DNA of 64,000 nucleotides from Acidimicrobiia bacterium (GCA_965215185.1 OZ244034.1:1311569-1375568), one strand, 5' to 3'; numbered from the stretch's first letter, positions 1-19,913 are shown. Notes: generated by a model not told the origin, from the sequence alone. Program-made: numbers and translations.

Positions 1-837
1 GCGCCAAGACAGCGTTTTCCTAGGTCAGAGGGTTGCCCGAAAGCGGGTTTGAAAGGAAAATTTCCAGTTGTGGCAGGAAATTCACACCGTGGGTAGTGCC
101 CCCGTTCGGGGTTGATACGACACCCGAAGATAAATCTGTGGTTTATGCCTCCCCTGGACTCCCGAACGAACTCACCACCTTAATAAGCGGCTTCTACACA
201 CAGTGCCAAGCCGTGACGTGTGGCGGGCTTTATGTTAGATGTCATGGAACAGGACAGACGGGCTACTTTTTCTTGGCGACCTCCAATCGGCTGAAGGGGT
301 GCTGCATGTCGTGTGGGAGCGTTGCGGCGATCACGGTATCCTTCCCTGACTTACAAAGAAATGAGACATTCCGAAACGGTCACCACACCCAAAAACAGAG
401 GGATCATTGAGGTACGCCTATGACCCCAATTGGCAGTCGGTGGCGGCGGTTTTCGAACCGGACCTCACCTCGGGATCTGGCTTACAAACAGTGGTGGCTT
501 GCACTGCTGAAGCACCAGGGGTTGTAATGAGCTTGGTCAGCGGCTAATACGGGTATGTAGCCAGAGATGGAAAGGGACATTGTTTGCTGTACCGTGGTTG
601 CTCGCCCAAAGGGACAATGGTGGAACTGCTAATACCTGTCGCCCACACCCCAGGGGCACGGTGAACAACAACGGGTGGTGTTCTTGGTTTTCCAGACGGC
701 AAGGGGCTGAGGGCGCGGCGCCGTTTGGGGGCGATAGCTCTGACCGCACCGAAGGGCTTTCCTCGTTGGCAAGCCAACCCAACCGATTGGCCGACATCTT
801 ATTAGACTGCTACCTTAGAATCCTCGAAAGAGATTGG

Positions 838-1152
838 ATGCCTATGCAGGAAATACAGGTCACCACTGTTGTCTGGCAAGAAGACGGTTGGTTTGTAGCG
901 CAGGCATTGGAAGTTGATGTTGCAAGTCAAGGCGAGTCGCCTTATGCAGCCCTTGACAACCTTGGTGAGGCATTGGAGCTCCATTTCGAACCGCCCCGTC
1001 CCACCGTGTTACCAGAAGTTCATCATCTCCTAGCGAAGGTTGCGCGGCTTAAATTCGCTCCCCTACCGACAGGTTGCCCGCAAACTGCGCAGAGCGGGGT
1101 TTGCACGCAAAGTCGATGTGTTGAGCATGAACGGAGTGCGCCACCCTCCTGA
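838..1152 (+). CDS. HicB-like (UPF0150) antitoxin-domain protein; true 3' end uncertain
   Basis: Segment MQEIQVTTVVWQEDGWFVAQALEVDVASQGESPYAALDNLGEALELHFE matches the HicB N-terminal antitoxin fold pattern (xYxAxxPELPGCxxQGxTxEEAxxNxxEAIxLHLE). Local GC is lower than the window average. Confidence 0.4.
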   Translation: MPMQEIQVTTVVWQEDGWFVAQALEVDVASQGESPYAALDNLGEALELHFEPPRPTVLPEVHHLLAKVARLKFAPLPTGCPQTAQSGVCTQSRCVEHERSAPPS

Positions 1153-1225
1153 CGAATGGGGGCCAAGATCGCCGCGATCGGATACACAAAGATGCGGTGC
1201 CCCTCTGACTGCAAAGAGGGTTTGA
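1040..1225 (+). CDS. HicA-like toxin fragment or candidate; frame overlaps the HicB-like ORF
   Basis: SLPYRQVARKLRRAGFARKVD resembles the HicA/YcfA pattern LPxRxVxxxLxxxGFxxxRxxGSH. The GSH box is not intact, so the gene may be degenerate. Confidence 0.3.
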   Translation: MRGLNSLPYRQVARKLRRAGFARKVDVLSMNGVRHPPDEWGPRSPRSDTQRCGAPLTAKRV

Positions 1226-1535
1226 CGCTGAAAAATGCCGTCCCAAATCAGAGGCTCTCACCAATTGTCCTAAATCGGGGGGTAAAGAACCCGCTTGGTT
1301 TTGGGATGTGCGGCCGGGGTGGTCAGGAAGTGGCGGCGGGTGCGCTTCTAGGCGACTAGTAGGGGGATGAGGAGTTCTTGGGGGGTGATGCCGCCGTGAT
1401 GGCCGACCATGTGCCCTCCCAGGCCGTCTGGCAGGATCACAGTATCCGGTGGGGCTAGTAGTGCGGCGGTTGGGAACTGTTCGAGGGCGGGGTGCGGGTC
1501 CCCACCGCCCAGCCATTCCCGCAGGCGATCAGCGT

Positions 1536-2462
1536 CTACGTATTGGGCGCCGGTGCGTTGAGCACATGCCGTACCTGTTCGACGGGCCCGTTGAACATCA
1601 GCACCCGCCCGTCGCCCCAGCATTCCATACCCTCAATAAGATGCCTCCCCAGCCTTATGATTCCGGCAGCAGGGATGTCGCAGTGCCCATGGTCAGCGGT
1701 TCCGATCAACGTGGTGTCGGGCGGCAAAATACGCGCCAGGCGACCCCACAACCGACCGGTGTTTTCGAGTGCTCTTTTGTACCCCAATGACCGTTGACCC
1801 GACATGTGGGCGTTGCTGTCCACCGAAGACAAATACACCACCATCAGAGTCGCCCCGCCGTCATCCAGCAACTCCGATGGTCTGATCCCATAGAGGCTGG
1901 AGTATCCGTATCGTTCCGCTCCCCGGTACACCATGTTGCTGAACGGAGTCCCTTCGAAGATCACAGGGTGGGAGATGACCGCTCTCACGCCGGCGGTGTT
2001 CAAGCGTTCCCATAGGTTGGGAGCGGGCAGGAAACCGGTCGTGTCGTAGTCAACCCGCTCCCACTTGTCCGCCCATTGCAACATGTTTACCACTCGACCC
2101 AAATCGGGAATCCATTGGGTGTATCCGATCACTCCATGCTGCATGGGCGCCAGCGCGGTGGCTACCGAAGACAAACCGACAGTGGTCGTGGTAGGAAACG
2201 GCGCCTTCAACACAGCCCGACGGGACCGGCGCAAAACCTCGGCGCTGGCATGAGCGAGTTGGCAATCGCCCAGACCATCTACCACCAGCAACACATAGTT
2301 GCGTTTGTCGGGAATCAGAACAGCCAGGTCAGAACGAAGGCCCCTGGTCGGCGACCCACCAGTGAGACGCCTTTCCAGTTCCGCCATCAGGTTCACCAAA
2401 TTGTCACCCTGATAAGAAGGCAAAACACCCTGATCTAACATCGCGGCCCCTTCCATCACCAA
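1536..2462 (-). CDS. alkaline-phosphatase-superfamily phosphodiesterase / nucleotide pyrophosphatase-like protein
   Basis: Contains LVVDGLG, TTTxxxxS and TADHGH metal-ligand motifs typical of type I phosphodiesterase/NPP family enzymes. ORF is 308 aa. Confidence 0.65.
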   Translation of the reverse strand: MVMEGAAMLDQGVLPSYQGDNLVNLMAELERRLTGGSPTRGLRSDLAVLIPDKRNYVLLVVDGLGDCQLAHASAEVLRRSRRAVLKAPFPTTTTVGLSSVATALAPMQHGVIGYTQWIPDLGRVVNMLQWADKWERVDYDTTGFLPAPNLWERLNTAGVRAVISHPVIFEGTPFSNMVYRGAERYGYSSLYGIRPSELLDDGGATLMVVYLSSVDSNAHMSGQRSLGYKRALENTGRLWGRLARILPPDTTLIGTADHGHCDIPAAGIIRLGRHLIEGMECWGDGRVLMFNGPVEQVRHVLNAPAPNT

Positions 2463-2475
2463 AAACCCCTACGGC

Positions 2476-2540
2476 GGCGCTGGCGCGAAACCACAAGACC
2501 CCGAATTACAGCATCGCCAGAACAAGCCGGTGAAACCACT
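2476..2540. repeat. left copy of a ~65-bp imperfect direct repeat (two GAAACCAC boxes)
   Basis: ggcgctggCgcgaaaccacaa followed ~30 nt later by cCggtgaaaccact. A near-identical block with the same spacing occurs at 10981-11044. Confidence 0.5.
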
Positions 2541-3040
2541 CTCGCCCAATTCTGAAACTGCTTATATCCATTTCCTAAACCACTTTCCGACCAGGTGCTC
2601 GGAGTCGAGGGTTGTGTAGGTAGGGCCATGCGACTGTAGTCATCGACCATAGAGCACGCTTACTCATAGCCGACCTTCTGACGAAGATTAGCCCGAGACC
2701 GAACCAGTACACACCATCCACCTCCATCGGGCACTCTTCGGAAGTTTCCCAATACGGTCCACGTCCCAGAGGCGGGACAGTCCCTGACGACCGGGCACCC
2801 GGTACATCGTGGACCGCAGTACCCACAGGCGCCCGACCATCAGATGAGGCATTCCTTCTAGGCAACACCATCCTCCGCGATCCGTTCCTCCATCTCCAAA
2901 GAGACCGGTTGGGACTGCGACAAGGCCGCGAGGAAGGGCCCAGGAGCCCGGCTTCGCCTTCCTCCCAGCAACGTCTTCAGCCGTGGCCGGGAACAGTTCC
3001 GCTGCCGTTCACCAGTTAGACGCGTCCGTCTCGTGCAAGT

Positions 3041-4457
3041 TTGCAAGTCCCTATGTCCTACCTCGACCAGCAGGGCACCGGATCTGTTCTTTGGGCACTG
3101 GGTGTTCTGGTGGTACTTTGGAGGATGACAATGAACATGTTGCCACCTCCCCCTGATGGTTCCGGTGACTATACCGACCCGGAAACGATCCAGATGGTGG
3201 TCGGCAACACCTCCACCCCACCCGACACTCTCACTGCCCTAGCGCAAGATCCCCAACCGCAGTGCGCACCGCGGTGGGGCGCAACCCGAGCACCCCACCA
3301 CACTCTCACTGCCCTAGCGCAAGATCCCCAACCGCAGGTGCGATGATCCCCAACCGGTGGGTCACAACCCGAGCACCCCACCACACCTTCTCACTGCCCT
3401 AGCGCAAGATCCCCAACCGCAGGTGCGATGGCATGTGGGTCACAACCCGAGCACCCCACCACACCTTGGCAACCCGAGCACCCCACCACACCTTCTCACT
3501 GCCCTAGCGCAAGATCCCCAACCGCAGGTGCGCAGAGCGGTGGGGCGCAACCCGAGCACCCCACCACACCTTCTCACTGCCCTAGCGCAAGATCCCCAAC
3601 CGCAGGTGCGATGGCATGTGGGTCACAACCCGAGCACCCCACCCGACACTCTCACTGCCCTAGCGCAAGATCCCCACCCGCTAGTGCGCAGAACGGTGGG
3701 GCGCAACCCGAGCACCCCACCCGACACTCTCACTGCCCTAGCGCAAGATCCCGACAGGATAGTGCGCAGCGCGGTGGGTGGCAACCCGAGCACCCCACCA
3801 CACCTTCTCACTGCCCTAGCGCAAGATCCCCAACCGCAGTGCGATGGCATGTGTGTGGCAACCCGAGCACCCCACCCGACACTCTCACTGCCCTAGCGCG
3901 CGGTGCGCAGCGCGGTGGGTGGCAACCCGAGCACCCCACCACACCTTCTCACTGCCCTAGCGCAAAATCCCCAACCGCAGGTGCGCAGAGCGGTGGGTCT
4001 CAACCCGAGCACCCCACCACACCTTCTCACTGCCCTAGCGCAAGATCCCCAACCGCAGGTGCGCAGAGCGGTGGGTCTCAACCCGAGCACCCCACCCGAC
4101 ACTCTCACTGCCCTAGCGCAAGATCCCCAACCGCAGGTGCGCAGAGCGGTGGGTCTCAACCCGAGCACCCCACCACACCTTCTCGCTGCTCTAGCGCAAA
4201 ATCCCCACCCGACGGTGCGCAACGTGGTGGGTGGCAACCCGAGCACCCCACCGCACCTTCTCGCAGACATGATCCGGGTACGCACGGCACCCAGAGCAGC
4301 CCGATATTACGACCCTGATTGTTTGCCTCCCTGCCCGTTCTGCGAAAACCACTGCGTGGAAGACAGCCGATATTACGACCCTGACCTCCTCAACTCCCTA
4401 CTGCAAAACACCGACGACCTTATCCGCCGCATAGAGGACGGTCTCCACAGCCGGTAG
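3041..4457 (+). CDS. membrane-anchored leucine-rich-repeat-variant (LRV) repeat protein; reading frame interrupted within the repeat array, possible pseudogene
   Basis: N-terminal hydrophobic segment SVLWALGVLVVLW. It is followed by about 14 copies of a 26-aa unit NPSTPP(H/D)(L/T)LTALAQDPQPQVRRAVG(R/L), which matches the LRV consensus (NPxTPxxxLxxLAxDxDxxVRxAVAxNP). Three same-direction ORFs (3041-3346, 3357-3896, 3903-4457) carry the same repeat in shifting frames. Confidence 0.5.
3200..4265 (+). repeat. tandem array of ~78-bp repeats (about 14 units) with unit-length indels
   Basis: Directly visible iteration of caacccgagcaccccaccacaccttctcactgccctagcgcaagatccccaaccgcaggtgcgcagagcggtgggtct. 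There are two alternating variants (gcgcagagcggtgggg vs gcgatggcatgtgggtc; caccacacctt vs cacccgacact). Confidence 0.85.
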
Positions 4458-5015
4458 TGGAACTTCAACCAGGCAAACCGGGAGCGGTTCTTGATCGGGA
4501 TGATCCGCACCACTTTCCTCAAACGCCTGGAAAGCGCCGCCCGTTCGCTCACTATAGGGACTTGGCGATTTAGGCGCTGACAGACTGGGTTTCGTTGTTT
4601 TCCCCGAATTTGGTGTCGTCGCCGACCAACGCCAACCAGATGGTTGTCATCGTGAACGACTCCGGTATTGGCGCGTCGGTTGATCCCATTATCGCTCGGA
4701 TGGAGAAAGCGTATCGTGGGAATCGCCCAGCGGCAGAGAAACTGATAGGGGAAGCGCATCGGCTGTTCCGCTAATTGGAAGCAGTGGGGGTTGTGCGGTG
4801 AAAGGACATCTCTTATTGGACACGATGCTGGAGTGGTGCTGGGCTGCCCGTCCCAACAGTTCGGGTGCGCATCGCCGTCCACAGGTGTCCACGGCGCGTA
4901 ACCGGCAGTGGGCGGCGATGGCGGTGTTCTCAGGGGCGGAAGCGTTGGGATTGGTGGCAGAGATCGCCGCTTGGTCGGTGATCGCATCCCCCGGTCTTCG
5001 GATTCTGTGTCTACC

Positions 5016-5190
5016 AGGCCGCTGACGGGTGAAGAAACAAAAAGGGTTCGGGGTCTCGCCGACCGGGGACAACTGTTCTCTCGGCGGGCGGTGATCGTTG
5101 CTTTGGCATTCACTGGCGGTACTTCTGGGGAGATTGTCGGGGTCCGCAAAAGCCATGTTGACCTGAAAACGGGAACAGTGAGAGTCGGTG
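5016..5190 (+). pseudogene. tyrosine recombinase (phage-type integrase) internal fragment
   Basis: LTGEETKRVRGLADRGQLFSRRAVIVALAFTGGTSGEIVGVRKSHVDLKTGTVRV matches the core-binding to catalytic-domain junction of tyrosine integrases (LLAYTGLRxxELxxLRWxDIDLxxGTLxV). No downstream R..HxxR..Y region is present; the ORF then runs into unrelated sequence. Confidence 0.45.
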
Positions 5191-5419
5191 GGCGGCAGAA
5201 TTCGTTGTGCGAGTGGGGACATGCCGCGCCGACCCGCTTTTGGTCAGCGTTTCATTGGCAGGCACATCCACCTGGGCGTTTCCGCAAAGCCCGTTATTCT
5301 TCCTCCGGTGTCCTGCTATCAAGGATTAATGTGGTCGTTGTTCACAGTTCTCGCCGGAGGTTCGGGGCGGTGGTCAGATTTCAAGTTGAGACGTACCGGT
5401 CTTGGGTTTTTGCTGCCCG

Positions 5420-7270
5420 TCAGGGTTGGTCGGTTTCATCGGCGTTGCGTAGGTAGGTGATGGTTTCCATCATTGCCCTGCAGTCAACCTCGTTGTAGGC
5501 TCGGATCTCTTTCATCAGTTCAAGATCGATGAGCCTTTCCGCCCGTTGTTGGTTGATCTGGCTTTGGCACCACCAGGCACCAACCATGGCTCCCAGGCCG
5601 TCGGTGGGTCCCGTGCCCCATTGGCAGTTGACGAGCCCGTGCTGGTGAAGAGCGTTGGTGAAGGGTTTCAGTCCGAAACCGAAGGAACCCCGAACCACGA
5701 CTGGCTCGGCTTTTATCACCCTGGTTAGGAAGTCGAACCAGTTGGGATTCGCCCATCTGTCCTGCCTGGAGGGATGTCTATTCCGGGCGGAGTTGTAGGC
5801 GTTTTCCAAACTGGATGCCTCGGCCGCCGACCAGTGGATCACCTTCGCGTGGCTGTCCGGAGCGATCCGATCTCGGACGGTGTTCATGTGATCAAGCCAC
5901 GCCTCCACAATGCTCGCCTCGTCCGGTTCGGTCAACTGGTCTGCGATGAAGCACTCGAAACGCCATTCGCCCATTTCGATGTGCCCGCAGCCGATCATGA
6001 AAATGAGAGGCTGTCCGCTCTTGAAGGGGAACCGGGCAAAGTCGTCGTCGAGGTCCGAGACTGTCTCAAAGTCAACGTAGAACTCGAGCGGAGGCGTATT
6101 GATCCACTCTGAGCGGGCCGACTCTATTCGGCGGGGTAGCACCGTGGGTCCGTCCGGTCGGCGGTTCACCTCCAACAACGCCCCCAGAGAGGTATTCCCT
6201 CCCATGTTCAGGCTTTCGGGTGTCACCTGGGGGTCGGTCCATTTGAACAGGCCCGCTCGGTTGGCCTCCCGCCACTTTTGGACTCCCACTCCCCGCAGTT
6301 GGATGAGATCCTCGGTCTCCTCCGCTAATAGTTTGACGGCCGATTTCCACTCCCCCATGTTGCCTTTGGTATTGGGTCGGAGTTCCTCCACCGTGGCCGG
6401 AACAGCTTCCCATTCGTGCCCAAGGCGGCGCATCCTCCGGATCCATTCAACCGCCTGGTCGGCATGAACCTCCAAACATGTGTTGTCCCAACTCTCGTCC
6501 ATGCCGACCGGACCCAACCGGTCCATACAGTTGTTGATTCTTTCAGTTGGCCGTTTTTGTGTCCTGCTCCACCCCCGGCCCAACAGGAACGCCTGCGTCG
6601 GGTGGTGGCCTTGCAGGTATCCCAGTGCCCGGTTGTACAGGAACACCTGCGCTTTGTACGCCCGGGCCGATCCGCTGTTTTGCAGAGCGTTTCCTCCCGC
6701 GTTGAACTGCAGGGTGGAGTATTTGATGTCAACTATCACATAGTGACGGTCGCCGATGTCCAGATCCGTCGCCGGGACAGCCACCTGCCCGGGGTCCAAA
6801 CATCCGGGAAACAGAGAAACCAGGACATCGCTTCGGACCAACAGGTCGGGAGAGCCATATACCCGGTGGCGGGTATCCCTCAACACACCCTGATAGACAA
6901 TGGGCGTGCCCTCCGCCATCGCCTCCCAAGTAGCTACCGCCGCTGCCAAAGAAACAACCTGTGACGCAGAATCATCCGGGGAAACGATGGTCCGCACCCC
7001 ATCAGGGTGGAGATATCTCAAATGGTCAGCCACCCGGATCTCGAACTCCCGGCCCTTGCGGAAAACGAAACCAAGAAAGTCGGTCCGAGGATCGGGTCGG
7101 TCCCTCTCGTACCCATTCATATCGCCGTAGCGTTCAAGCCAATCCACCAGAGGATCACCCAGAACATGATTGCGGGTTCTAGTCGCCGACACCCACCCAT
7201 CCCATTCCACCCCGCCCGTGGGAACCACCAGGCGACCGGTGTCATCAAAAATTAGGGCTGTCTTCGGCAT
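5420..7270 (-). CDS. RecB-family nuclease, TM0106-like: N-terminal PD-(D/E)XK nuclease, central HhH, C-terminal RNase-H-like 3'-5' exonuclease domain
   Basis: PD-(D/E)XK motifs GSPDLLVRSD ... HYVIVDIKYS ... AYKAQVFLY (QxxxY). HhH motif LIQLRGVGVQKWREANRAGLF. Exonuclease motifs FYVDFETVS (DxE), HWSAAEASSL, YNEVDCRAM (YxxxD). Start is chosen at the internal ATG 7270, which has GGAGGG 5 nt upstream; the longer ORF runs to 7372. Confidence 0.7.
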   Translation of the reverse strand: MPKTALIFDDTGRLVVPTGGVEWDGWVSATRTRNHVLGDPLVDWLERYGDMNGYERDRPDPRTDFLGFVFRKGREFEIRVADHLRYLHPDGVRTIVSPDDSASQVVSLAAAVATWEAMAEGTPIVYQGVLRDTRHRVYGSPDLLVRSDVLVSLFPGCLDPGQVAVPATDLDIGDRHYVIVDIKYSTLQFNAGGNALQNSGSARAYKAQVFLYNRALGYLQGHHPTQAFLLGRGWSRTQKRPTERINNCMDRLGPVGMDESWDNTCLEVHADQAVEWIRRMRRLGHEWEAVPATVEELRPNTKGNMGEWKSAVKLLAEETEDLIQLRGVGVQKWREANRAGLFKWTDPQVTPESLNMGGNTSLGALLEVNRRPDGPTVLPRRIESARSEWINTPPLEFYVDFETVSDLDDDFARFPFKSGQPLIFMIGCGHIEMGEWRFECFIADQLTEPDEASIVEAWLDHMNTVRDRIAPDSHAKVIHWSAAEASSLENAYNSARNRHPSRQDRWANPNWFDFLTRVIKAEPVVVRGSFGFGLKPFTNALHQHGLVNCQWGTGPTDGLGAMVGAWWCQSQINQQRAERLIDLELMKEIRAYNEVDCRAMMETITYLRNADETDQP

Positions 7271-7689
7271 AACCCTCCGAACAGGCAACGGGAAACCTTG
7301 CTGAGATAATAGGCACCGAAAAAGGAATAGAGCGCGGCGATGCCTGGTGGGTTGAATCTCCCGCCCCACCACCCAGGGTCACGGGGGGATGACTCGGTAT
7401 TGCAAGACCGGCCCACAACACCTTCATAAGGTACGGCATGTGCGAGAGCCAAGGTGTGCTTCTAAGCGAAGGGAGGATTGCCGAGTAGGAGATACTTCTT
7501 AGGGGATATCAGGACTGCCGACGCTGGTTTAGGTGTGCATTTGAGTGATGTGGTGGTCCGTCTCTACGGGGAGTCAGAAAAGGGGACTAAAGAATCGCTG
7601 TTTGAACATCATTGATCAACTGGTTGAGTTCAACGCCTACGACATCCAGAAAAGGCTCGATCAAGAAAGGCAGTAACCCTTAGCCATTT

Positions 7690-8463
7690 CTAGGTCAGAA
7701 CTTCCAGATCGCCATCCTGGCTGCGTTCCACTACGGCAATGCCTTGCAACCCCCGGGGACCGGCGTGGGGCTTGGCCAGGCACACCACCTGAGCGCTGCC
7801 GATCATGCCCTTCTGGTCGTAATGCCTGTGCCCGCAAGCGTGGACACGGGGTTGGACCGTCTCGACAAGTTCACGCAGCGACGGATCTCCAATCGGGTTG
7901 CCTCTCCGGTCGGCGAGGACCCCTGATGGCCAGTCATGGGTCAACAACACGTCCAAACGTCCGTCCAGACGACCGACTGTGTCGATGAGTTGGTGCAACT
8001 CGGACCGATGCCAATAGGTCCGCTGCTTGGGCCCTTGACGAGATGGTTCCGCAAGCTCCGAATACTTCGGTGAGTAGATGCCCGACAGAAACCCGACTGT
8101 CACATCGCCAATACGTGTTATACCGAAGCGGCCCAGCCACCACACCCCCGGCGTCCACTCGCCCGGGCCGGCCCGGTCCAACATTGGATACGGCTCGTGA
8201 TTGCCCGCAATGAAATACAAAGGAGCACCCAACACGATCTCCTCGGCTACCAATCCTGGGAAGTCACCCATCTTCCGATACCGGGCGGGTACCGCCACTC
8301 CTGCCTGGTCGCTACGATCCCGGTTCGCTTCCAAATCACCCACCGCCAAGACGAAATCCAACTGCCCCCACCGGTGGCGCACCTCACCGAGGCCTTCGGC
8401 TAGGGACTCGAACCTGCCGTGAATGTCACCAACGATCACAAACCGGGTTGTCATAGATCCCAT
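7690..8463 (-). CDS. calcineurin-like metallophosphoesterase
   Basis: MPE motifs GDIHG, GDLEANRD, GNHE, THDWP, GHRH. ORF is 257 aa. Confidence 0.8.
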   Translation of the reverse strand: MGSMTTRFVIVGDIHGRFESLAEGLGEVRHRWGQLDFVLAVGDLEANRDRSDQAGVAVPARYRKMGDFPGLVAEEIVLGAPLYFIAGNHEPYPMLDRAGPGEWTPGVWWLGRFGITRIGDVTVGFLSGIYSPKYSELAEPSRQGPKQRTYWHRSELHQLIDTVGRLDGRLDVLLTHDWPSGVLADRRGNPIGDPSLRELVETVQPRVHACGHRHYDQKGMIGSAQVVCLAKPHAGPRGLQGIAVVERSQDGDLEVLT

Positions 8464-8984
8464 TCATGGTAATCCAATTATCCCCCTTTTTGCCTTGGGA
8501 GTGGCAACTGGCACTGACCCAACGGCGGGTGCTGGCCACCATCCCTGATCTGCGCCTTTCCCAGAGGTTTTCGGGGAGAACCCCACACCTCAACGTGAGA
8601 CATGCGCATCCCCTCCCAAACACCCGGATCCTCCCACTGTCGGAACACGCCCTTCCCGGCGAAATCTCCAAAGTCCGCTGTCCCCTCCATTCCGTCGGCA
8701 AAACGAATCCACACCCGATACTTCTCAAGCGGTTTCGCTTCCACCGAACAGGCAGAACATGACAAGGTGAGAATAGAGTCTGCTAACGACGCGTTGGTTG
8801 GTTCCGTCGCACCCAGGGACTCGCTCTGGCCAACACACAGCCGTCGTTTGTTCGGGTTGATGAGAGCGGGAAGGTAACGACCCGGACCAGAAAAGGTTGT
8901 TGGACTTCGCGGAGAGGGCAGTGGCGCGGTTGTGTTCTCTGTCGTTGCCGGTTTTGTTTGGGTTTCTGAACCAGAAACACTATA

Positions 8985-9851
8985 TTGGTAGCCCCTATGA
9001 GTGAGGTTGTTGCGGTTCAGCCCGGGTTGCCGGATTGGTTTTACGGGCGGCTTGGCACTTGTCCGGTGCCGGATGCGATGGTTCCGGTGGTCACCGATTT
9101 GTTCGGCAAAAAGGCTTCCGTTGTGACTTTGGACGATTTGGAGTCGTATGGTGTGAAGGGGTGGTCCCCTTCTGAAATGGCTCAAGTGTTGCGTCGGAAG
9201 GATTGGCTGTTTCCGTTGCGGTGTCAGGGTGCCTGGCGGTTCTACAGGTCCGCTATTTCTCTTCGGACACCCGGGTTCGCGGAGTTGAGGGCCAGGTTGC
9301 GGGTTCGCCCCGACACCCCGGCTTGTATAGGGGGTCGGTCGGTGGCTCAGGCGCACAGTTGGCTGCGTCGTCCCACCGGCCGGACAATTGGAATGCCTCC
9401 TCGCGTGAAAGCACCTAGTTGTTTTCAGGATTACACCGTGTGCCGGTGGGAACCACAAATACCATTGGACGAGATCGAAGGGTTGCCGGTGTGGAAACCC
9501 GAAACGCTGTTGGTGTTTATGGGTGCCCGGCCCGGGTCGTTTCCCTGGTCGGACATAGCAGAATGGCTGTGGGAGAGCTGCGAACCGCTCGAAGAAGATT
9601 TGTTGCTGAGCGAACTGGAAGGCAGACCACGGGCAACGTGGATGAAAACCGCCTACGTTCTCGACGCCGGTGAACGACCCGACCTGTCAGATACGCTGGT
9701 CAAGTTATGCCCCTCGAACGCCAAGGGACCGCATTTACTCGCCGACCGCACCTACCGGCATGGGTCGCTCAAGAGAACACCTGTTTGGTCCGCCAAGTAC
9801 GAAGTGGTGGATTACATCTTCCCCAGATGGTGGATAGCCAAATGGCGGTAA
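8985..9851 (+). CDS. abiEi: AbiEi-family antitoxin (type IV TA / abortive infection transcriptional regulator)
   Basis: N-terminal VVTLDDLESYGVKGWSPSEMAQVLRRKDWLFPLRCQGAWRF fits the AbiEi_4 N-terminal wHTH pattern (vvtxxxLxxxGvsxxxlxrLvrxGxLxrlxrGvY). It sits immediately upstream of and overlaps a DUF1814/AbiEii gene. Confidence 0.65.
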   Translation: MVAPMSEVVAVQPGLPDWFYGRLGTCPVPDAMVPVVTDLFGKKASVVTLDDLESYGVKGWSPSEMAQVLRRKDWLFPLRCQGAWRFYRSAISLRTPGFAELRARLRVRPDTPACIGGRSVAQAHSWLRRPTGRTIGMPPRVKAPSCFQDYTVCRWEPQIPLDEIEGLPVWKPETLLVFMGARPGSFPWSDIAEWLWESCEPLEEDLLLSELEGRPRATWMKTAYVLDAGERPDLSDTLVKLCPSNAKGPHLLADRTYRHGSLKRTPVWSAKYEVVDYIFPRWWIAKWR

Positions 9852-10795
9852 CAGACCGACCGATCACACCAGGAGACATCACCCGTTTCTATCCCTTGGC
9901 GGCGCGGGATACAGAGGTGCATGTCGGGGCGGTGCTTGATATAGCGTTTGATCATATTCTCTATGGTCTTCTACAAAGCAGCGCATTTGACGCTTTGGAT
10001 ATGACTTTCAAGGGCGGCACAGCCTTGCGGAAATATTACCTGGGACACAAGAGCCGGTTCTCGTTCGATCTCGATTTCGATGTCGCATCGGGAGCGGAGG
10101 ATCTGGTAGCGGAACAGGTCAACCGGATGAGTTTCGACCAGTTCGACTTCACCGTTTACGAGCGGCGGGGTCACTACATGATAGAAATCGCGTCCGAACT
10201 GTTGGCCACTGATAGCGTGCCTGTCAAAATGGACTTTTCGACAAGAGGGCTGTGGTTACCAACCGAGTGGACACCGCCGATAGGCAACCCGATGCACGGT
10301 TTGTATGCTTTCGACCCGCCGGTGGTTCCGGTCATAAATCTAGCAGAAAACCTTTCCGAAAAACTGTCACGATGGCAACGGATATCCGTGGTTCGCGACC
10401 TGTACGACCTGGCCGCTCTCGCCGGGTATGTGTCACCGGGACTTGTCGCCGAGTTATGGGTGCTGAAATCTTATAGGAACATGATCGAACAAAGACACCG
10501 GTTGCAGCAAGGCGACACGGCTGCTTCGGTCGAAAATATCACAGCCCAGCGACAGGTTTCTGATTTCGATCTAAACGACTTGGTGCTTCCCGGGACCGCT
10601 TCTGCCAGCGACAAAGCCCAACTGGTACGTGAAGATATCCGCATAGTGGCGAGTTTTTGCCGAACGATCGCTGAATGCATGACCCCCGAATTGTCAGAAA
10701 TCGCTTCGGACCGAGGCGCCCTGGAGTGGAAAGTCGCCCAGCGGATACAAAAACTGGCAGGACAAAGTGCTAGCGGTGTTCACCGATCACGCTAA
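9842..10795 (+). CDS. abiEii: AbiEii/AbiGii-family nucleotidyltransferase toxin (DUF1814)
   Basis: TFKGGTALRKYYLGHKSRFSFDLDFD is the nucleotidyltransferase signature GG[TS]AL...R.S.DLD of AbiEii. Alternative start at 9827. Overlaps abiEi by about 10 nt. Confidence 0.75.
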   Translation: MAVTDRPITPGDITRFYPLAARDTEVHVGAVLDIAFDHILYGLLQSSAFDALDMTFKGGTALRKYYLGHKSRFSFDLDFDVASGAEDLVAEQVNRMSFDQFDFTVYERRGHYMIEIASELLATDSVPVKMDFSTRGLWLPTEWTPPIGNPMHGLYAFDPPVVPVINLAENLSEKLSRWQRISVVRDLYDLAALAGYVSPGLVAELWVLKSYRNMIEQRHRLQQGDTAASVENITAQRQVSDFDLNDLVLPGTASASDKAQLVREDIRIVASFCRTIAECMTPELSEIASDRGALEWKVAQRIQKLAGQSASGVHRSR

Positions 10796-10980
10796 AACGG
10801 GCCTGGACTACGTATTTGTGGAGCAGTGGCCCTCTGTGATGTGTCAATGAAGGGGAAGTCCTGACAGCGGTTTTCTCAGGGGGTGTGGTCGGTTCCGGAA
10901 AGAGAACCGAGACTGTCACGGGCATAATCGATCCTCCCGGCACCGCTATGGGTTGTTACCCCAAAACCGTTTGGGGTTGT

Positions 10981-11044
10981 GGCGCTGGAGCGAAACCACA
11001 AAGTCCCAGGTCACGGCCTTGAGCGAGGGGGCGGTGAAACCACT
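10981..11044. repeat. right copy of the ~65-bp imperfect direct repeat
   Basis: ggcgctggAgcgaaaccacaaag ... gCggtgaaaccact. Box spacing is the same as in copy 2476-2540. Confidence 0.5.
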
Positions 11045-12137
11045 TTTTGGGGCTCATCGATGCTCCTATATTGTCAAATCCGGTTTTGGTGAGGTGTGAG
11101 GGTGGTGAGCCATTGGTGGTATCGGGTGGCGAGTTGATCCGGCAAGGAACCGTGCCTCATCTATTGATTCTGTCACAAGACAGTTGGTTTTATTATTTGG
11201 GTACACCCTTAGCCCATCAAGGGGGGCGCGCTAAATCGCCAACCGCCCGCCCGAGCACCGCTACCATCTTCTTAGCCTGTTGCATTCTATCTAGAGATCC
11301 CATGTGGAGCCCAATCTGATTCCTGTTTGTTAGACGCTGCTTTGGGGGAACCTCCCTACATAACCAGAAGGGCTCGCCAGTACGGAGTTGCCGACTTCGA
11401 CATCCGATCAGTGCTTGAGCACCCTCTGGAAACCATGGCCTGTCGGAAGCACTTGATCTCAACCTGACGCAGTCAGTACAAACTCGGGGCGAGTGGAAGT
11501 TGGACGCGTCGGACCGGGCTAATGTGGTTGTGTATGCTGGGCACGGTGTTGATAGCCAGAAACTGGTGGTTTTCTAGTGGTTTTCGTAGACCGCTTCGAG
11601 GATCGGGTTTTTCACGCGGAGCGAGGTGAGCGCCACTTCGGATGGATGTCCCAATAAACACCAGAACCTCCGTGTATCAGGGATAGGAATTTAGTTTTTT
11701 AGCGTCAGCGCCACTCAGGTCCGGTGGAATACCAGGAGGTATTGACTCAAGGGTGACCCATCGCGGGACCGGCGGTCCCGCAGGGTTCGGTTCGTCTATG
11801 TCTACCAAGAATACATAGTCCTCTATTATGCGTTCCAGCACTTCTGCGGCATCGTCTAAAGTTAGGGGTGAGACAGTGTCGTTTCTAGCGGATGTCCATT
11901 GATAAAACCGCCATCCCGGTTGATCTCGCCCAGCAAAAAGTACCCAGCAAGGCACCCACGCATTCCCTCTGTGAGCAACCGAGGGGTCCAGGAGGCAGGG
12001 CAATTTGGGGTGTGGCTGACAAAGGAACCTGCCACTGAGGTTTTGCCATTCCCACCTGCTCGTCCCCGAGTAGGCCAACGCCCGATCCTGCGAGTATTGA
12101 CGGGCTTCCGACTGCGTGGAAAAGGTTTGAAACATAC

Positions 12138-12425
12138 CTATTCCAAACGGCGGCGGAGTTGGCGGTTGGGACGGTTCACTTCCGCCACCTCGACACCGAT
12201 GCTCATGAGGTGGCGGGTCAGGCCGGCGCCGTAGCTGCCGGTGCCCTCTATACCGACCTGGGCCACTCGACCCCAGGACCCCAGCCAGTCGCCCAGTTGT
12301 TCATAACCGGTGGCGTCGGCGCTGAAGGTTGCCGTGTCCAAAAGTCGACCGGTGGCATCCACCACCGCCGCGACATGAACATCACGGTGGGTGTCAACCC
12401 CACCGAACACAATCCGATCATCCTC
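12138..12425 (-). mobile_element. IS110-family transposase, N-terminal DEDD-domain fragment (truncated)
   Basis: IVFGGVDTHRDVHVAAVVDATGRLLD...VGIEGTGSYGAGLTRHL...VEVAEVNRPN matches the IS110 transposase N-terminal domain. A stop follows after about 110 aa, and the C-terminal domain is absent. Confidence 0.6.
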
Positions 12426-12761
12426 TGACACGAGCTGCTTCTCCTTCAATTCGAATCCGTTTCTGTTCTCCCTGACCCGAAAAAGCGGGTGGACAGACCG
12501 CTCTGTGAGTATTAGGGAGGCCTCGTAGAGATTGCCAGGAGTGGCGTCAGCGGCGGTGTCGTGACCCGGGACCACTCTGACCTTTGTGTCTTTCACCTGA
12601 TATGTCCGACACCGCCGTGGCGCCTTCTGGGCGCTTGCGTTGCTGGCCTGATCAGAAGCTTGTCCACCCCTGGGGGGTGTGACCCTTCACAATGTTGCCG
12701 TCACGGATTTGCACCCTCTTGGGGCACAACCCAATTTTGCACAAGAAAGAGAGGTTTTCTT

Positions 12762-13101
12762 ATGTTGGCCACAATGGTAGATCATGTGATCGGGATCGAT
12801 CCTGATCGTGACCGGGTCACCGCGTCGGTAGTGGACACTGCAACTACCGGAGAACAAGCGTCTGCGGTGTTCGAAACCACCAGGGCGGGGTATGACCGGC
12901 TGTTGGAATGGGCCAACCGGCATACCACCGCCTCTGATCGAGTGTGGTCTGTGGAAGGCACAGGCAGTTACGGAGCTGGTGTGACCGCCCATTTGATTGC
13001 TTGTGGGGAACTGGTGACCGAGTTCAACAATCCCATCCCTACCCGCGACGGCGCCAAAACCGACGCTTTGGACGCCCGACGCGCCGTGGGGGTGTGGCAG
13101 T
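12762..13101 (+). mobile_element. IS110-family transposase, N-terminal fragment (different copy, truncated)
   Basis: MLATMVDHVIGIDPDRDRVTASVVDT...SVEGTGSYGAGVTAHL...VTEFNNPIPTRDGAKTDALDARRA. Has a good RBS (GAGAGG) before ATG 12762. Homology is lost after about 113 aa. Confidence 0.6.
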
Positions 13102-13337
13102 GCCGGTGCCCGCATAAGGGGGGATTCACAAGGGTTCTGAATTGTGGTGTCCCCTCTCTCGCGATTGCGGGTGTCCTCCCGGGAACCCTTGTTAAGTCGC
13201 AGGTCAGAGATGGTGGCCAACACCCAAAGCTGAGGGCCCAAAACCTGTTGGATGACCCGCGGTGGCCGCAGATAGGGTGTCAGCTATGGGACGAGAGCCG
13301 CCTCAAGAGCTCGAACCGCGTCGCTATGCGCCGCCTC

Positions 13338-13592
13338 CTAGCCGTCGGCCCGCCGGTCCAACGTCCCATCCGAGGCCGGTCCAAGGGTTGTCGCCAGATA
13401 GCCCAACACAGCCCGCGGTTTCCACTCATCCATGGGGAACCATTCCAAGAAATCCGCCAGAGAAGCACCGCACTCCAGGTTCGCGAATAGGTGTCCCACA
13501 GGTACCCGGGTTCCGACAAATACCCAAGCGCCGCTGACCTTGCCCGGGATGCGCTCCACGGCCGGGCAGTCATCCCAATTGATGCCTGCCAT
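13338..13592 (-). CDS. DUF433 domain protein (antitoxin-like partner of DUF5615/PIN-like genes), apparently orphan
   Basis: MAGINWDDCPAVERIPGKVSGAWVFVGTRVPVGHLFANLECGASLADFLEWFP matches the DUF433 pattern (ILGGKPVIKGTRIPV...E.L..YP). AAGGA RBS lies upstream of ATG 13592. Confidence 0.65.
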   Translation of the reverse strand: MAGINWDDCPAVERIPGKVSGAWVFVGTRVPVGHLFANLECGASLADFLEWFPMDEWKPRAVLGYLATTLGPASDGTLDRRADG

Positions 13593-14226
13593 TAAAGGAT
13601 CCTTTCTTCTCTGCTTCATCCAGCCAACCGTCCACCACTCTCGCAGGGATGTTAAAACCAGGGTGTGACGCAAGCTGATAGGGTTTCAGGACGAGGTTTG
13701 TCCGTAGAACTGCTGTCGCCCCTGGTTCTGGTTCTTCCGGTGGGCCAGTCCCAAATGTTTGGTCCAAGCATGAAAGTTCATCTGGACAACCCTCTTTTAC
13801 CTTTCTGATCCGCCGGGACATGAGCATAGGTGTCATCCTATGGGGCCGGTGCGACAACTCCCGGTAAGTGCCTGCGTAAACTGACGACAGCAAAGCGGGC
13901 GTCAGATCGCCGGTTCTGGCGGCTGATCGCCAACGGTCGAAAAGTGCTCCGAGCCGATCATAGGACTGGTGCCGCCACACCTGTGGAATAGCCTGTCCTA
14001 GGGATAGCAACTCGCCGCCGTCGGCGACTGCAACTGCTTGATCTTCCGCGTCAAGCCATCGACAGAAAACGGACGACAACTCCTGCAGATGCCTCCGTGC
14101 CAGCCTCGCGTCGCTCTCGAAGATCTCCTCCGGGTCGTCGTTTGTGCCACGGCCGATGCCAAGGGTGGCACGAGCCACGGTAGCACCCGCAGGCGACACA
14201 TCGAGAGCGACGACGTTAAGGTTCAA
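13570..14226 (-). CDS. hypothetical protein (no recognisable family)
   Basis: 218-aa ORF with balanced composition. Overlaps the start of the DUF433 gene. No motif recognised. Confidence 0.25.
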   Translation of the reverse strand: MNLNVVALDVSPAGATVARATLGIGRGTNDDPEEIFESDARLARRHLQELSSVFCRWLDAEDQAVAVADGGELLSLGQAIPQVWRHQSYDRLGALFDRWRSAARTGDLTPALLSSVYAGTYRELSHRPHRMTPMLMSRRIRKVKEGCPDELSCLDQTFGTGPPEEPEPGATAVLRTNLVLKPYQLASHPGFNIPARVVDGWLDEAEKKGSFNGRHQLG

Positions 14227-14974
14227 GGACGCCAGGCTCTGCGCGACAACCGATATCCCCGTGAATGCGAAGCGGCGTTGCGCCGATACAAGGCAAGCCC
14301 ACCGTCCAACCGCTCATGCGTCGGCCAACCAAGTGAACTGTACTCAGGCGTCAGTAACGACCGATCCCCGTCGAGCAACACTTTGAAAGCTATTTCACAC
14401 CCATCGCCAACTGTCTCGTATTGTGGACTGGCCCTGTGACACATCCCCGACCACACCGGCCGGGTTCCTTCGCGGCGGGTGTGGTCGCCACACCTTCTGA
14501 GCTCCGGATCCAACCGGACTCAAGGGGAAGATCGTCCACCGGGTCAGTGAACAGAACAGCCGGGCTGGCTGTAGGCCGCCAGTCTACGAAAGAGCGGAGG
14601 GGGTTTGCCAGGCTTACAAGGAGCCGAAGACAGCGGTGCGGGCCGTGTAACAGAGAACCCCGAACACCGAGCATCTCTGTGTGGATGCCCGCTTGGACCG
14701 GATTGTCCTTGAGGTGAGCAAACGTTCATCGGGAGGAATCGAGGCCAGAGGGATGGCGCCCACTTGGCGGGCGCGGCTAACGGAACTGCAGCTCACCCAG
14801 AAGGTAGTGGAAGTGTATGCACCTTTGCTGGGAAACACGCGGAGAGGGAGAATCAGAGTTGCCGCCACCGACCACATTTGGCTGGAGGACCGGGTGGGAT
14901 TCGACTACTACCTACCCATAGAAGAGATGACAGCGGTGATCCGCCCCGTGCCCACTGGTTGAATCGCCGACTGC

Positions 14975-15214
14975 TTACCCGGCTGCATCCTGGGTTGTCG
15001 TAGGCTTGGGACAGACGGGGTGGGACCTTATGTAGTCGATTACTTCCGAATATATAAACCGGTAGACCCGCGAACCCGGCAACTGATAGGCGGGAAGACG
15101 GCCCTCTCGAGCATACTTACGAACCATCTGCACATTCATGCGTAGCAACTCCGCGACCTGTGCAGTGTCGATCACGGATGGGTAGGCGGTTGCTTCTCTA
15201 TGTGTTTCTATCAT
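14975..15214 (-). CDS. excisionase-family helix-turn-helix DNA-binding protein (Xis-like)
   Basis: IDTAQVAELLRMNVQMVRKYAREGRLPAYQLPGSRVYRFIYSEVIDYI fits the excisionase/MerR-type HTH (TIGR01764-like). Lies 178 nt from the tRNA-Glu 3' end. Confidence 0.6.
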   Translation of the reverse strand: MIETHREATAYPSVIDTAQVAELLRMNVQMVRKYAREGRLPAYQLPGSRVYRFIYSEVIDYIRSHPVCPKPTTTQDAAG

Positions 15215-15391
15215 GTTCTACCTCACTTGTTATTATCTTAAGATATTTTACTAATAAAAGACGTAATCACAAACCTTTTGAGTCGCCTCTTTTTCGCGAA
15301 ATGGTCGTGAATGCTGGAGTGACGGGTGTCTCGGTAAACCCTGCGACCAGAAAATGAGCCTTCGTTGTGCCGGTAAGACACGCCAAGGCAA

Positions 15392-15467
15392 TGGCAGCCC
15401 CGACCGGGTTCGAACCGGCGTTACCGGCTTGAGAGGCCGGCGTCCTAGGCCACTAGACGACGGGGCC
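15392..15467 (-). tRNA. tRNA-Glu (anticodon CTC), CCA encoded
   Basis: Reverse complement GGCCCCGTCGTCTAGTGGCCTAGGACGCCGGCCTCTCAAGCCGGTAACGCCGGTTCGAACCCGGTCGGGGCTGCCA folds as a cloverleaf. Acceptor GGCCCCG/CGGGGCT, anticodon loop CTCTCAA, T-loop TTCGAAC. Confidence 0.9.
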
Positions 15468-15492
15468 AACAAGACCGGATGATACCCGGACT

Positions 15493-15567
15493 TGGCTCGG
15501 GGGGAAGGACTCGAACCCTCAATAACAGGGCCAGAACCTGTCGTGTTACCTATTACACCACCCCCGA
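15493..15567 (-). tRNA. tRNA-Gln (anticodon CTG), CCA encoded
   Basis: Reverse complement TCGGGGGTGGTGTAATAGGTAACACGACAGGTTCTGGCCCTGTTATTGAGGGTTCGAGTCCTTCCCCCCGAGCCA. U1-A72 is typical of tRNA-Gln. Anticodon loop TTCTGGC. Confidence 0.85.
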
Positions 15568-16127
15568 GGGCGCCCTTCAGCATACCAGGTCCTCCACGAG
15601 CCCATTCTGGGAATCTGATCGACTGCACGCTACCCGATCCCTGTTCCCATCCAGTCAGACTCGCGGTCGTCCAATCAGTGGCGTCCCTGCACCTCAGGCA
15701 ACTATCGGAGGGCATCCAGTCCGGGGAATCAAACGACCCTTTGGAAGGGTTGGATGAGGCACTGACTACGGTAAGGGCTTCCTCATGATCAATGTCGTTG
15801 GCAACAAGAGCAATGACGACACGCTCAACGGCCATTTCTTTCCTTCACTGGGTACCCGGGTTTGGTGGCAGGCCACCTGGCCTCCGAGAGTTCCCGACCG
15901 TTAAGACACCCACTGCACTCCTGTTAACTCAACCGAGCGCAAGGCTTTAACGAGAGGTAACTCTCGGCAAAATATCAACATAGTACGCAATGTTTACAAT
16001 CCCCAAATATTTTGATGAACTGGAATCTGTCTCTTTATAACCTGCCAGACGCCGGGTCCAATTGGCAAATGTTTTACCACAATGTTCAATACTTTAGAGA
16101 GTTATTATTAACTGCACCAAACTATCC

Positions 16128-16595
16128 TTGGTGCTCCCTGTAGTGAAACCTATCACAGTCTCCGTTGACATTGCGGCGCCCCCTGAGACAGTTTGGGCAA
16201 AACTAGCCGACCTCTCCTCTCACTCGGAGTGGATGAGCGATGCTGTCTCCATCGCTTTCGCGACCAAACAGCGCCGGGGGATCGGGGTGAGAATGGAAGT
16301 GCCCACCCGTGTAGGACCTATTTGCGTCACGGACATCATGGAGGTGGATGCATGGACCGAGGGCAAACTGATCGGTGTTCGCCATGTGGGTAGAATCAGC
16401 GGCTGGGGGCGTTTCGACCTGTCTGCCAATGCCTCCGGGACCCGCCTCACCAGGGTGGAGCAACTCCGGTTCCCGTGGTATATGGGCGGTGTTCTTGCGG
16501 AATGGTTTTATCAACCCGCCCTCCGCTGGATCTTTAGAGCCAACCTGACCAGTTTCCAACGGTGGATTGAAGCCGGCAGCAAAGAAGTTGTCTAG
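16128..16595 (+). CDS. SRPBCC-family (polyketide cyclase/dehydrase-like) protein
   Basis: PETVWAKLADLSSHSEWMS ... START/Bet v1-like pattern. ORF is 155 aa. Confidence 0.6.
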   Translation: MVLPVVKPITVSVDIAAPPETVWAKLADLSSHSEWMSDAVSIAFATKQRRGIGVRMEVPTRVGPICVTDIMEVDAWTEGKLIGVRHVGRISGWGRFDLSANASGTRLTRVEQLRFPWYMGGVLAEWFYQPALRWIFRANLTSFQRWIEAGSKEVV

Positions 16596-17362
16596 GTTCC
16601 CCCGAAGGTTGCCCGCCGTTTCTCGATAAAGGCCTCCACCCCTTCCCGGGCGTCATCGCTCCAAAAGCAGTCCAAGAAGGCTCGACGCTCGACTTCCATG
16701 GCCTCACGCAGGTGAAGCCCCAACCCTCCGATCAGAGCCCGCTTGGCGGCCCCCAATGCTACGGTGGGACCTTTCGCCCACCGTTGGGTGTCCTCCATGG
16801 CCCGGTCCAACAGTTCATCAGATGGGAACACCTTATCCGCCAACCCCATTTCCAGTGCTTCGGGCGCCGGCACGAACCTGCCCGAGAAGACGACCTCCTT
16901 GGCTTTCTGGAACCCGATCAGACGTGCCAGCCGCTGAGTTCCTCCTGCTCCGGGAATGATCCCCAACTTGATCTCAGGCTGTCCCACCTGGGCGTCTTCC
17001 GCCAAGTAGCGGAAATCACACCCCATGGACAACTCCAGACCTCCTCCCAGTGCGTATCCGAAAATGGCGGCGATGGTTGGTTTGGGCAGCGCCTCCAATC
17101 TCCAGATGGCGTCCACCAATTCCGAGGCCAGGTCATCGGTCATCTTCCCGGAGTCATGAGCAGACTGAAACCCCTTGATATCGGCTCCGGCCGCAAAGTG
17201 GGGCTGACCAGTAACAATCACCGCCCGCACTCCTGGATCCTCCGCCCTGGCAAAGACCTCGTTCAACTCCGTCGACAACTCCAAAGAAAGCGCATTCACG
17301 GGAGGACGGTTGAGGCGCACCACTGCCACCGCACCCTCCACCGAGTATTCGACCATTGACAT
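16592..17362 (-). CDS. enoyl-CoA hydratase/isomerase (crotonase family)
   Basis: VAVVRLNRPPVNAL, AAGADIKGF, GYALGGGLELSMGCDFR crotonase signatures. Confidence 0.85.
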   Translation of the reverse strand: MSMVEYSVEGAVAVVRLNRPPVNALSLELSTELNEVFARAEDPGVRAVIVTGQPHFAAGADIKGFQSAHDSGKMTDDLASELVDAIWRLEALPKPTIAAIFGYALGGGLELSMGCDFRYLAEDAQVGQPEIKLGIIPGAGGTQRLARLIGFQKAKEVVFSGRFVPAPEALEMGLADKVFPSDELLDRAMEDTQRWAKGPTVALGAAKRALIGGLGLHLREAMEVERRAFLDCFWSDDAREGVEAFIEKRRATFGGT

Positions 17363-17795
17363 CAGAAAGCCTCCATAATCCGCTCGTCACATCGGGGACT
17401 CCCCCGAGATTACACCTCTGATTCCCCCGTCCTGGCAAAGGACCAGCAAAGCCGCGACCTTTTCCACGGCGTTGCGGTTGAAATGTGTCCCACACTGGTA
17501 ACAGCCAGACACCAACCGGTCTGACTCCGACGTCGTTCAGACCGTACATGGGATCATCTTTTGCATAAAGCTTCCTCCGGGAGCCTGGCGCAGCACGTGT
17601 TACCTATGGTTCGGTGGCGGAGGGGGTGGGCCCATCGGCCAGCAGTTAGTCGGTGTTTTTCGCGAATTAGTGTCGTAACTTGGCGAGAGACACCATTTAA
17701 TCCGACCAGCAACACCCCGCCAACTCCCACCTCCGCCCCTTCAACCGACCTCGGCATCCTCAAAGAGGCGCGCAGATGAGCCAAGTTGGGTGGGG

Positions 17796-19823: not shown

Positions 19824-19913
19824 AGTTGTCCCTTTTTCATCTCACGTTAGGCGTCTGCCAGCGCCTAACTACCAAGACGTGCTACCTGGCAAAAGGTTGC
19901 ACTTTCGGATGGT

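Follow-up and report, generated by a model that had tools for sequence, protein, structure and literature searches.

A strain-variable accessory block beside tRNA-Glu in an Acidimicrobiia bacterium, probably in place of a tad pilus operon between core genes

Two kinds of described region come closest to the one considered here. In tRNA-anchored islands, a tyrosine integrase and an excisionase (Xis) go together with attL and attR sites derived from a duplicated tRNA 3′ end; in defence-island hotspots and strain-variable islets, conserved flanks enclose toxin-antitoxin (TA), abortive-infection (Abi), nuclease and restriction-modification (RM) genes along with insertion sequence (IS) elements. 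The present region occupies the left end of a 64,000-nt stretch of DNA from a marine Acidimicrobiia bacterium (GCA_965215185.1, OZ244034.1:1311569-1375568; hereafter the window), in which an earlier note, made from the sequence alone, saw a decayed integrative island anchored at tRNA-Glu. It resembles such islands in lying on the 3′ side of a tRNA, in having an excisionase-fold gene nearby and in being absent from relatives, but no integrase stands at the tRNA, no tRNA-derived repeat occurs in the window, and both the Xis-like gene and the gene next to it are core genes conserved where there is no island. With hotspots and islets it shares conserved flanks, here HTH_17/X192 toward the tRNA and p370/bacA at the far end, and the mixture of TA/Abi, nuclease, RM and IS genes, except that here a functional tad operon appears to have been displaced rather than an intergenic gap filled; no dedicated integration machinery is evident in the block as it stands in the window. 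The account favored here, with considerable confidence, is that a strain-variable accessory or defence block displaced the tad operon between core genes and was later reshaped by IS elements and by deletions between short repeats. The region is a further instance of a well-known region type, and its nearness to tRNA-Glu is incidental.

Loci for comparison were retrieved from two entry points. The enoyl-CoA hydratase (ECH) gene at 16592-17362 served as anchor and yielded the conspecific contig L001 (97.6% nucleotide identity) and representatives of 15 related Acidimicrobiia species, while a 98%-identical homologue of a 616-aa protein encoded in the block led to contig L073/L075. Five conspecific assemblies were compared, with L001/L077, L073/L075, L074 and L076 beside the window, all of them, island-bearing and island-free alike, metagenome-assembled. 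Synteny, junctions and strain differences can be read directly from these loci. The tRNA-proximal flank comprises the following features, the tRNA genes having been called with ARAGORN:

15493-15567, minus strand: tRNA-Gln(ctg)
15392-15467, minus strand: tRNA-Glu(ctc)
14975-15214, minus strand: HTH_17 (excisionase-fold) DNA-binding gene, 79 aa (Pfam HTH_17 7e-11; TIGR01764 1e-6)
14657-14950, plus strand: truncated X192 remnant, aa 92-189 (tblastn with X192 of L009, 54% identity, 1e-31)

In L001-L014 and L016 the ECH gene is likewise followed by tRNA-Gln/tRNA-Glu, which the more distant relatives L017-L030 do not have there; the two tRNA genes belong to the conserved core and do not mark an island junction. 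The adjacent gene is indeed of excisionase type, as the earlier note had it: besides its Pfam and TIGR01764 matches, the protein hits phrog_66 and phrog_7735 in PHROGs, both labeled 'excisionase'. What fails is its use as the mark of an integrated element. In the window the gene lies 177 nt from the tRNA-Glu 3′ end; its orthologues (70-86% amino acid identity) lie 165-181 nt past tRNA-Glu in 14 related species, every locus that extends far enough shows the order ECH, tRNA-Gln, tRNA-Glu, HTH_17, the spot is fixed with or without an island (the island-free conspecific L001 has the gene too), and the protein is identical across four conspecific contigs. Because it keeps this distance from tRNA-Glu in relatives without the island, HTH_17 belongs to the resident core; it has the fold of an excisionase but is not that of an island. 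Non-mobile regulators of HTH_17 type, such as those of the BldC type, are common in Actinobacteria. For annotation, the caution is that an excisionase-fold gene beside a tRNA is no proof of an integrated element. Two peculiarities of gene calling attach to this flank. A 194-aa open reading frame (ORF) at 15251-15835 on the minus strand, called in all public assemblies of the locus, overlaps both tRNA genes and is almost certainly spurious. The Polyketide_cyc2 gene adjoining tRNA-Gln (16128-16595) is 154-155 aa long in the window and three strains, but in the island-free strain (L077 8621-8878) its call is a mere 85 aa.

X192 is the next gene after HTH_17 in 13 related species, and in 12 the order runs on through cpaB, tadZ, tadA, tadB, tadC, p370 and bacA, past which come plsY, moeA, moaC and tRNA-Ala. 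X192 has no family assigned and p370 has a weak TadE-like match. This tad-bearing arrangement is stable across species whose ECH proteins share 83-89% identity. At the nucleotide level these relatives match the window over 14663-15241 and the tRNAs alone, homology ending at 14663; on the other side of the locus, p370 is reduced to its last 37 residues (aa 334-370) beside bacA in L001 and L073. Window 1-14656 has no counterpart in L002-L016, and when the island was compared with the relatives by tblastx, the matches were all short and could not be interpreted. Because the replaced stretch begins halfway along X192 and ends with p370, the near edge of the block is placed at about 14656, roughly 0.75 kb from the tRNA and not at it. 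The earlier note had proposed looking in related genomes for an empty site directly at tRNA-Glu; what they carry there is HTH_17 and X192, and the accessory DNA begins only at about 14656. That the region is accessory is borne out all the same, 1-14656 being absent from 14 related species and one conspecific strain.

The opposite edge can be followed in a sister strain. L073/L075 matches the island at 96-99.9% nucleotide identity overall: L073 6133-13228 corresponds to window 11138-4088 and L073 13054-15688 to window 3392-755 (both at 96-98%), and L073 16764-17520 corresponds to window 757-1 (99.9%), with an IS30-type insertion in L073 at window 755-757. Beyond window position 1, L073 continues with Fic, HTH_3 and PP2C genes and then enters the bacA-side sequence of L001 (L073 20938 = L001 12992). 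By extension from this near-identical strain, the far edge in the window strain would lie beside bacA, about 3.4 kb past the window's left end. The stretch 431-461, previously proposed as a degenerate att-type partial duplication of the tRNA marking the far boundary, is not that boundary, because it lies inside the island, which runs on for those ~3.4 kb in L073. Nor is it a tRNA duplication. Its resemblance to the tRNA-Glu 3′ end comes down to a single exact 10-mer (452-461 = 15409-15418; blastn-short E = 12), many matches to the tRNA region elsewhere in the window are equal or longer, and in a local-alignment scan 32 of 3072 40-nt windows in 1-15391 score at least as high against the 3′ half of the tRNA. 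This is no better than chance, an outcome that the earlier note had itself named as refuting its view, and 431-461 is no feature at all. A blastn-short search with 15340-15600 returned nothing longer than 13 nt, and no tRNA-derived direct repeat occurs in the whole window. GC is 0.583 over 1-14656 versus 0.613 over 15600-64000, a difference too slight to confirm the drop that had been claimed, and GC at third codon positions (GC3) of the cargo genes (0.58-0.70) falls mostly inside the range of core ORFs (0.71 ± 0.06), with only AbiEii low (0.585). Composition neither supports nor refutes recent transfer.

The conspecific loci differ from one another by IS content and deletions only. L001 is collinear with the window from 27335 to 14873, then jumps to 12449-11939 and then reaches bacA. 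The island is missing from L001/L077, where an IS110 stub abuts the bacA side and 11939-12449 is all that is kept of window 1-14656. This contig has a single TACT, versus a TACT at both ends of the missing DNA in the window and in L073. Since window 12450-14872, with part of the ancestral X192 remnant, is missing too, L001/L077 is a deletion derivative, not an empty site. L076, which lacks window 11244-14402 and has one copy of the 9-mer GTTGGCGAT there, is a deletion derivative as well, because the IS110 C-terminal stub is still present in it.

The same flanks enclose differing cargo in the five conspecific variants and, beyond the species, in L082/L083. In the latter, from another species, tadC, tadB and a 5′-truncated tadA are kept, and the breakpoint inside tadA differs from that of the window species. 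The cargo of L082/L083 includes a homologue of the nuclease gene (77% nucleotide identity) and an MmeI-like RM gene, and it further encodes a DDE transposase and two proteins of the DUF4062-TPR and TaqI_C kinds. In L002, cpaB-tadC is simply deleted (L002 13033-15076). Because the window species, L082/L083 (L082 3322-9050) and L002 have each been altered there, the locus is a recurrent remodelling site. Three independent events have removed or shortened the tad pilus operon there, and defence and TA cargo has taken its place.

The ancestral order would have been tRNA-Gln, tRNA-Glu, HTH_17, X192, cpaB, tadZ, tadA, tadB, tadC, p370 and bacA. All DNA between mid-X192 and the tail of p370, the tad (Flp) pilus operon included, would have been lost, and a block of about 18 kb, most of it represented by window 1-14656, would have come to stand in its place. 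The modules inserted would be AbiEi/AbiEii, a metallophosphoesterase with a RecB-like/DEDDy nuclease, an LRV gene, a phosphodiesterase and a HicB-like ORF, along with the Fic/HTH_3 and PP2C genes beyond the window, as seen in L073. IS110-, IS30- and IS256-type insertions may then have followed, and after them trimming through deletions between short direct repeats. We infer the order of these events from the aligned loci. Several points weigh against this account. The left boundary is taken from strain L073 and not from the window's own strain. No flanking repeats and no recombinase could be tied to the original replacement. It is presence and absence that carry the case for horizontal origin, because composition differs only slightly from the core. 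Finally, a tyrosine-recombinase-fold relic lies inside the block, so that site-specific recombination may formerly have mobilised part of the cargo.

That relic (4667-5219) is also among the supports of the view first proposed, that of a tyrosine-integrase island in the tRNA-Glu 3′ end with HTH_17 as its excisionase, the integrase and distal att having since been lost. To the relic may be added the matches of HTH_17 to excisionase models, its position on the 3′ side of the tRNA and the absence of the block from related species. Yet HTH_17 holds its place in the 14 island-less species and in L001, the core remnant X192′ intervenes between it and the cargo, the tRNA repeat is lacking and the one candidate, 431-461, is at chance level. 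The relic itself, the sole recombinase trace in the block and some 10 kb from the tRNA, is dead in the window and belongs to a separate small two-gene module that occurs elsewhere away from tRNAs, and neither the ORFs nor the six-frame translations made of the tested regions gave a Phage_integrase match. The conserved synteny of HTH_17 and X192 already contradicts an integrative element anchored at tRNA-Glu, which is highly improbable. A prophage or integrative and conjugative element remnant was likewise considered and rejected: PHROGs gave only generic phosphoesterase and HTH/excisionase matches, and no structural or conjugation genes.

The anchoring could be moved back in time, if HTH_17-X192-tad were itself an ancient island at tRNA-Glu, with HTH_17 as the fossil of its excisionase, and if the present cargo had come into that old island afterward. 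tad loci are mobile and known as a horizontally spread 'widespread colonization island'; an excisionase-fold gene does stand directly 3′ of the tRNA, no tRNA pair stands behind the ECH gene in L017-L030, and the locus has been remodelled repeatedly (window species, L002, L082). Against such a nested history, the 12 tad-bearing loci examined show neither integrase nor att repeat, their arrangement is stable over the species range given above, and HTH_17 proteins are commonly non-mobile in Actinobacteria, which leaves it an unlikely history. Least credible of all, to the point of being negligible, is an artefact of assembly or binning that misjoined the block to the tRNA-Glu region. All sequences are metagenome-assembled and the repeated IS110 copies could cause misjoins, but three independent assemblies from different samples (L073/L075, L074 and L076) share the X192′ junction with the window, and the order from AbiE to phosphodiesterase is also common to them.

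Returning to a block that displaced tad and was reshaped afterward, its IS-ridden portion and the remains within and beside it are as follows:

11244-14402, no strand: strain-variable IS-ridden segment, bounded by the 9-bp direct repeat GTTGGCGAT (14403-14411 and 11243-11251) and absent from L076
13338-13673, minus strand: DUF433 gene (5e-8)
12762-13085, plus strand: IS110 N-terminal stub (Pfam and tblastn)
12144-12431, minus strand: IS110 N-terminal stub (Pfam and tblastn)
11077-11136, minus strand: IS110 C-terminal stub, last 20 codons (tblastn, 100% to aa 389-408 of a 408-aa transposase of L075)

The DUF433 orphan and the two IS110 fragments reported previously are all present, and the 20-aa C-terminal stub adds a third fragment, one common to all island-bearing strains. 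The window's other IS110 copies comprise the first 95-108 aa only. As expected of the IS110 family, DEDD_Tnp_IS110 N-terminal domains are found in the window and full genes with DEDD and Transposase_20 domains in sister strains, but the pair is incomplete in the window, where only stubs occur. Full transposase genes in the segment number 4-5 in L074 and L075. In L075, five IS110 transposase genes are piled one behind another at one spot (11977-18720); in L074 (11977-16595), an IS256-type gene is nested among IS110 genes, and window 11077-13085 keeps stubs only. This pattern suggests that the same site was hit repeatedly. A six-frame Pfam scan of 13480-14700 gave no match.

The remaining cargo, with the AbiE gene limits set from the L073 gene calls, is listed from the tRNA-proximal side:

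9842-10795, plus strand: AbiEii (PF08843 2e-21, 77.5 bits versus a cutoff of 22.5; PADLOC AbiEii 2e-43)
8997-9851, plus strand: AbiEi, match below cutoff (AbiEi_1 8.9e-4, 19.9 bits versus a cutoff of 22.2)
7690-8463, minus strand: calcineurin-like metallophosphoesterase, 257 aa (PF00149 1e-12; PADLOC PDC-S10 3e-10; phrog_1649 1e-12)
5420-7270, minus strand: predicted two-domain nuclease, 616 aa (alignment motifs and structure model)
4667-5219, plus strand: frameshifted tyrosine-recombinase-fold relic, aa 8-191 of ~305 (tblastn with P0121 over three frames, 1e-38)
3041-4457, plus strand: LRV/HEAT-repeat gene in three ORFs (Pfam LRV 3e-34 and 3e-24; TRF)
1351-2441, minus strand: type I phosphodiesterase (alkaline-phosphatase superfamily) pseudogene (PF01663 1e-17)
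835-1152, plus strand: HicB-like DUF7387 ORF (PF24113 8.6e-9)

The earlier note's description of a decayed region loaded with TA/Abi and nuclease genes survives this closer look, with frameshifted and stub genes on the one hand and AbiE and a predicted nuclease on the other, and the cargo may serve in defence. Its phosphoesterase and nuclease pair, LRV-repeat gene and alkaline-phosphatase-family phosphodiesterase were all recovered, the last two in broken form. Of its two toxin-antitoxin pairs, AbiEi/AbiEii has a firm AbiEii match and an AbiEi match below the cutoff; in the other, the HicB-like ORF is matched, and the HicA partner proposed at 1040-1225 has no match in the family scan. The AbiEii nucleotidyltransferase toxin domain lies behind an overlapping AbiEi-like gene (10-nt overlap), the gene order expected for a cognate pair. 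In this 8997-10795 agrees with described AbiE systems, differing in the sub-cutoff AbiEi match, and is predicted to be a type IV toxin-antitoxin/abortive-infection pair. A frameshift and an in-frame stop interrupt the LRV gene, which contains a tandem array of 78-bp (26-aa) units at 3214-4262 (TRF) with strain-variable copy number. The gene is 165 aa long in L073 and 269 aa in L076, whereas in the window its three broken ORFs span ~470 codons. The phosphodiesterase is frameshifted near 1565; the intact 364-aa gene of L073 aligns with it in two pieces, aa 1-293 in one frame and aa 293-364 in another.

The 616-aa protein matched no Pfam family, and neither does its own family of more than 930 homologues, of ~613 aa, contain a Pfam domain. 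Two sets of motifs are invariant or nearly so in the family alignment: RecB-type motifs (D142, D181-x-K183 and Q208xxxY212) and DEDDy exonuclease motifs (D400-x-E402, D513 and Y592xxxD596). In Foldseek searches with the AlphaFold (AF2) model (pLDDT 88.6), the best matches were a DnaQ domain, PolB exonuclease domains and RNase H/RuvC folds, all of them weak (best E = 1e-2). It is a reasonable prediction that the protein joins an N-terminal RecB-like PD-(D/E)xK domain to a C-terminal DEDDy/DnaQ-like exonuclease; because the motifs fit while structural and family matches are weak, 'nuclease' is used here as a prediction and not as a demonstrated function. The closest described proteins are the TM0106/COG2251-type RecB nucleases (TIGR03491), in which PD-(D/E)xK RecB motifs are likewise followed by an RNase-H-like/DnaQ-like exonuclease domain. 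The window protein differs in scoring far under the TIGR03491 cutoff (19 bits versus 97) and in lacking a Pfam match, which sets it in a separate unnamed family.

The 'integrase fragment' of the earlier note is real as well, although Pfam is blind to it: a scan of 4360-5470 in all six frames gave no match. The relic could be recognised because an intact 305-aa homologue in L081 (59% identity over 93 aa by BLASTP) and a structure prediction were available. Its family has 63 members, no Pfam domain and a Phage_integrase score of 11.7 bits versus a cutoff of 27.1. Foldseek with the AF2 model of P0121 (pLDDT 88.5) returned XerA (3e-9) and, all with probability 1.00, XerH, Tn1549 Int and lambda Int (TM 0.65). 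By this predicted structure, the family is a two-domain, non-canonical tyrosine-recombinase fold. At box I the consensus has A-G-G-T-x-x-E, the canonical Arg being replaced throughout the family, and the top PDB sequence match of the box-I-like stretch, XerD, is non-significant (E = 0.36). In L081 and L084 the recombinase-fold gene shares an 8-nt overlap with a gene for a 549-594-aa protein of no known family (module coordinates L081 5846-8405 and L084 8001-10812), whose R..D.E..N..LK motif might, by analogy, recall DDE transposases. Public assemblies call minus-strand genes at window 4373-5255 (188 aa in L073, 246 aa in L076); as these run antisense to the relic and none of their homologues carries a known domain, a pseudogene has probably been miscalled here. 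That the recombinase-like gene and the nuclease are linked was entertained and rejected, the two being adjacent only in the window species, 1.6 kb apart in L081 and unlinked in L082 and L084.

In a distant genome with a nuclease 59% identical to that of the window (L078 1-7842), a metallophosphoesterase and a 631-aa LRV-repeat protein lie within 6 kb of the nuclease. The L078 trio matches that of window 3041-8463 and was not seen in four other contexts; at the same hotspot in another species (L082/L083), the nuclease alone of the trio recurs. The 631-aa gene had been considered as a nuclease paralogue and was rejected as such, BLASTP identifying it as an LRV-repeat protein. One might speculate that the cargo holds two undescribed systems, the metallophosphoesterase/LRV/nuclease trio as a new anti-phage or anti-plasmid system and the recombinase-fold gene with its 550-594-aa partner as a new kind of mobile element, a tentative suggestion that we regard as rather doubtful. 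The 616-aa nuclease family and the recombinase-fold family are in any case flagged here as two unnamed protein families. Judged by isolate names, the Acidimicrobiia lineage appears to be sponge- or coral-associated, an association that fits the enrichment of sponge symbionts in defence genes described in PMC5649159.

A different tRNA of the neighborhood offers a last observation. About 6 kb beyond bacA, an intact tyrosine integrase with Arm-DNA-bind_3, Phage_int_M and Phage_integrase domains (L001 18065-19511) lies 240 nt past tRNA-Ala(cgc), and integrase pieces are found at that tRNA-Ala in L002 as well (19841-20653). A genuine tRNA-anchored element may lie there, at tRNA-Ala, to the left of the window.

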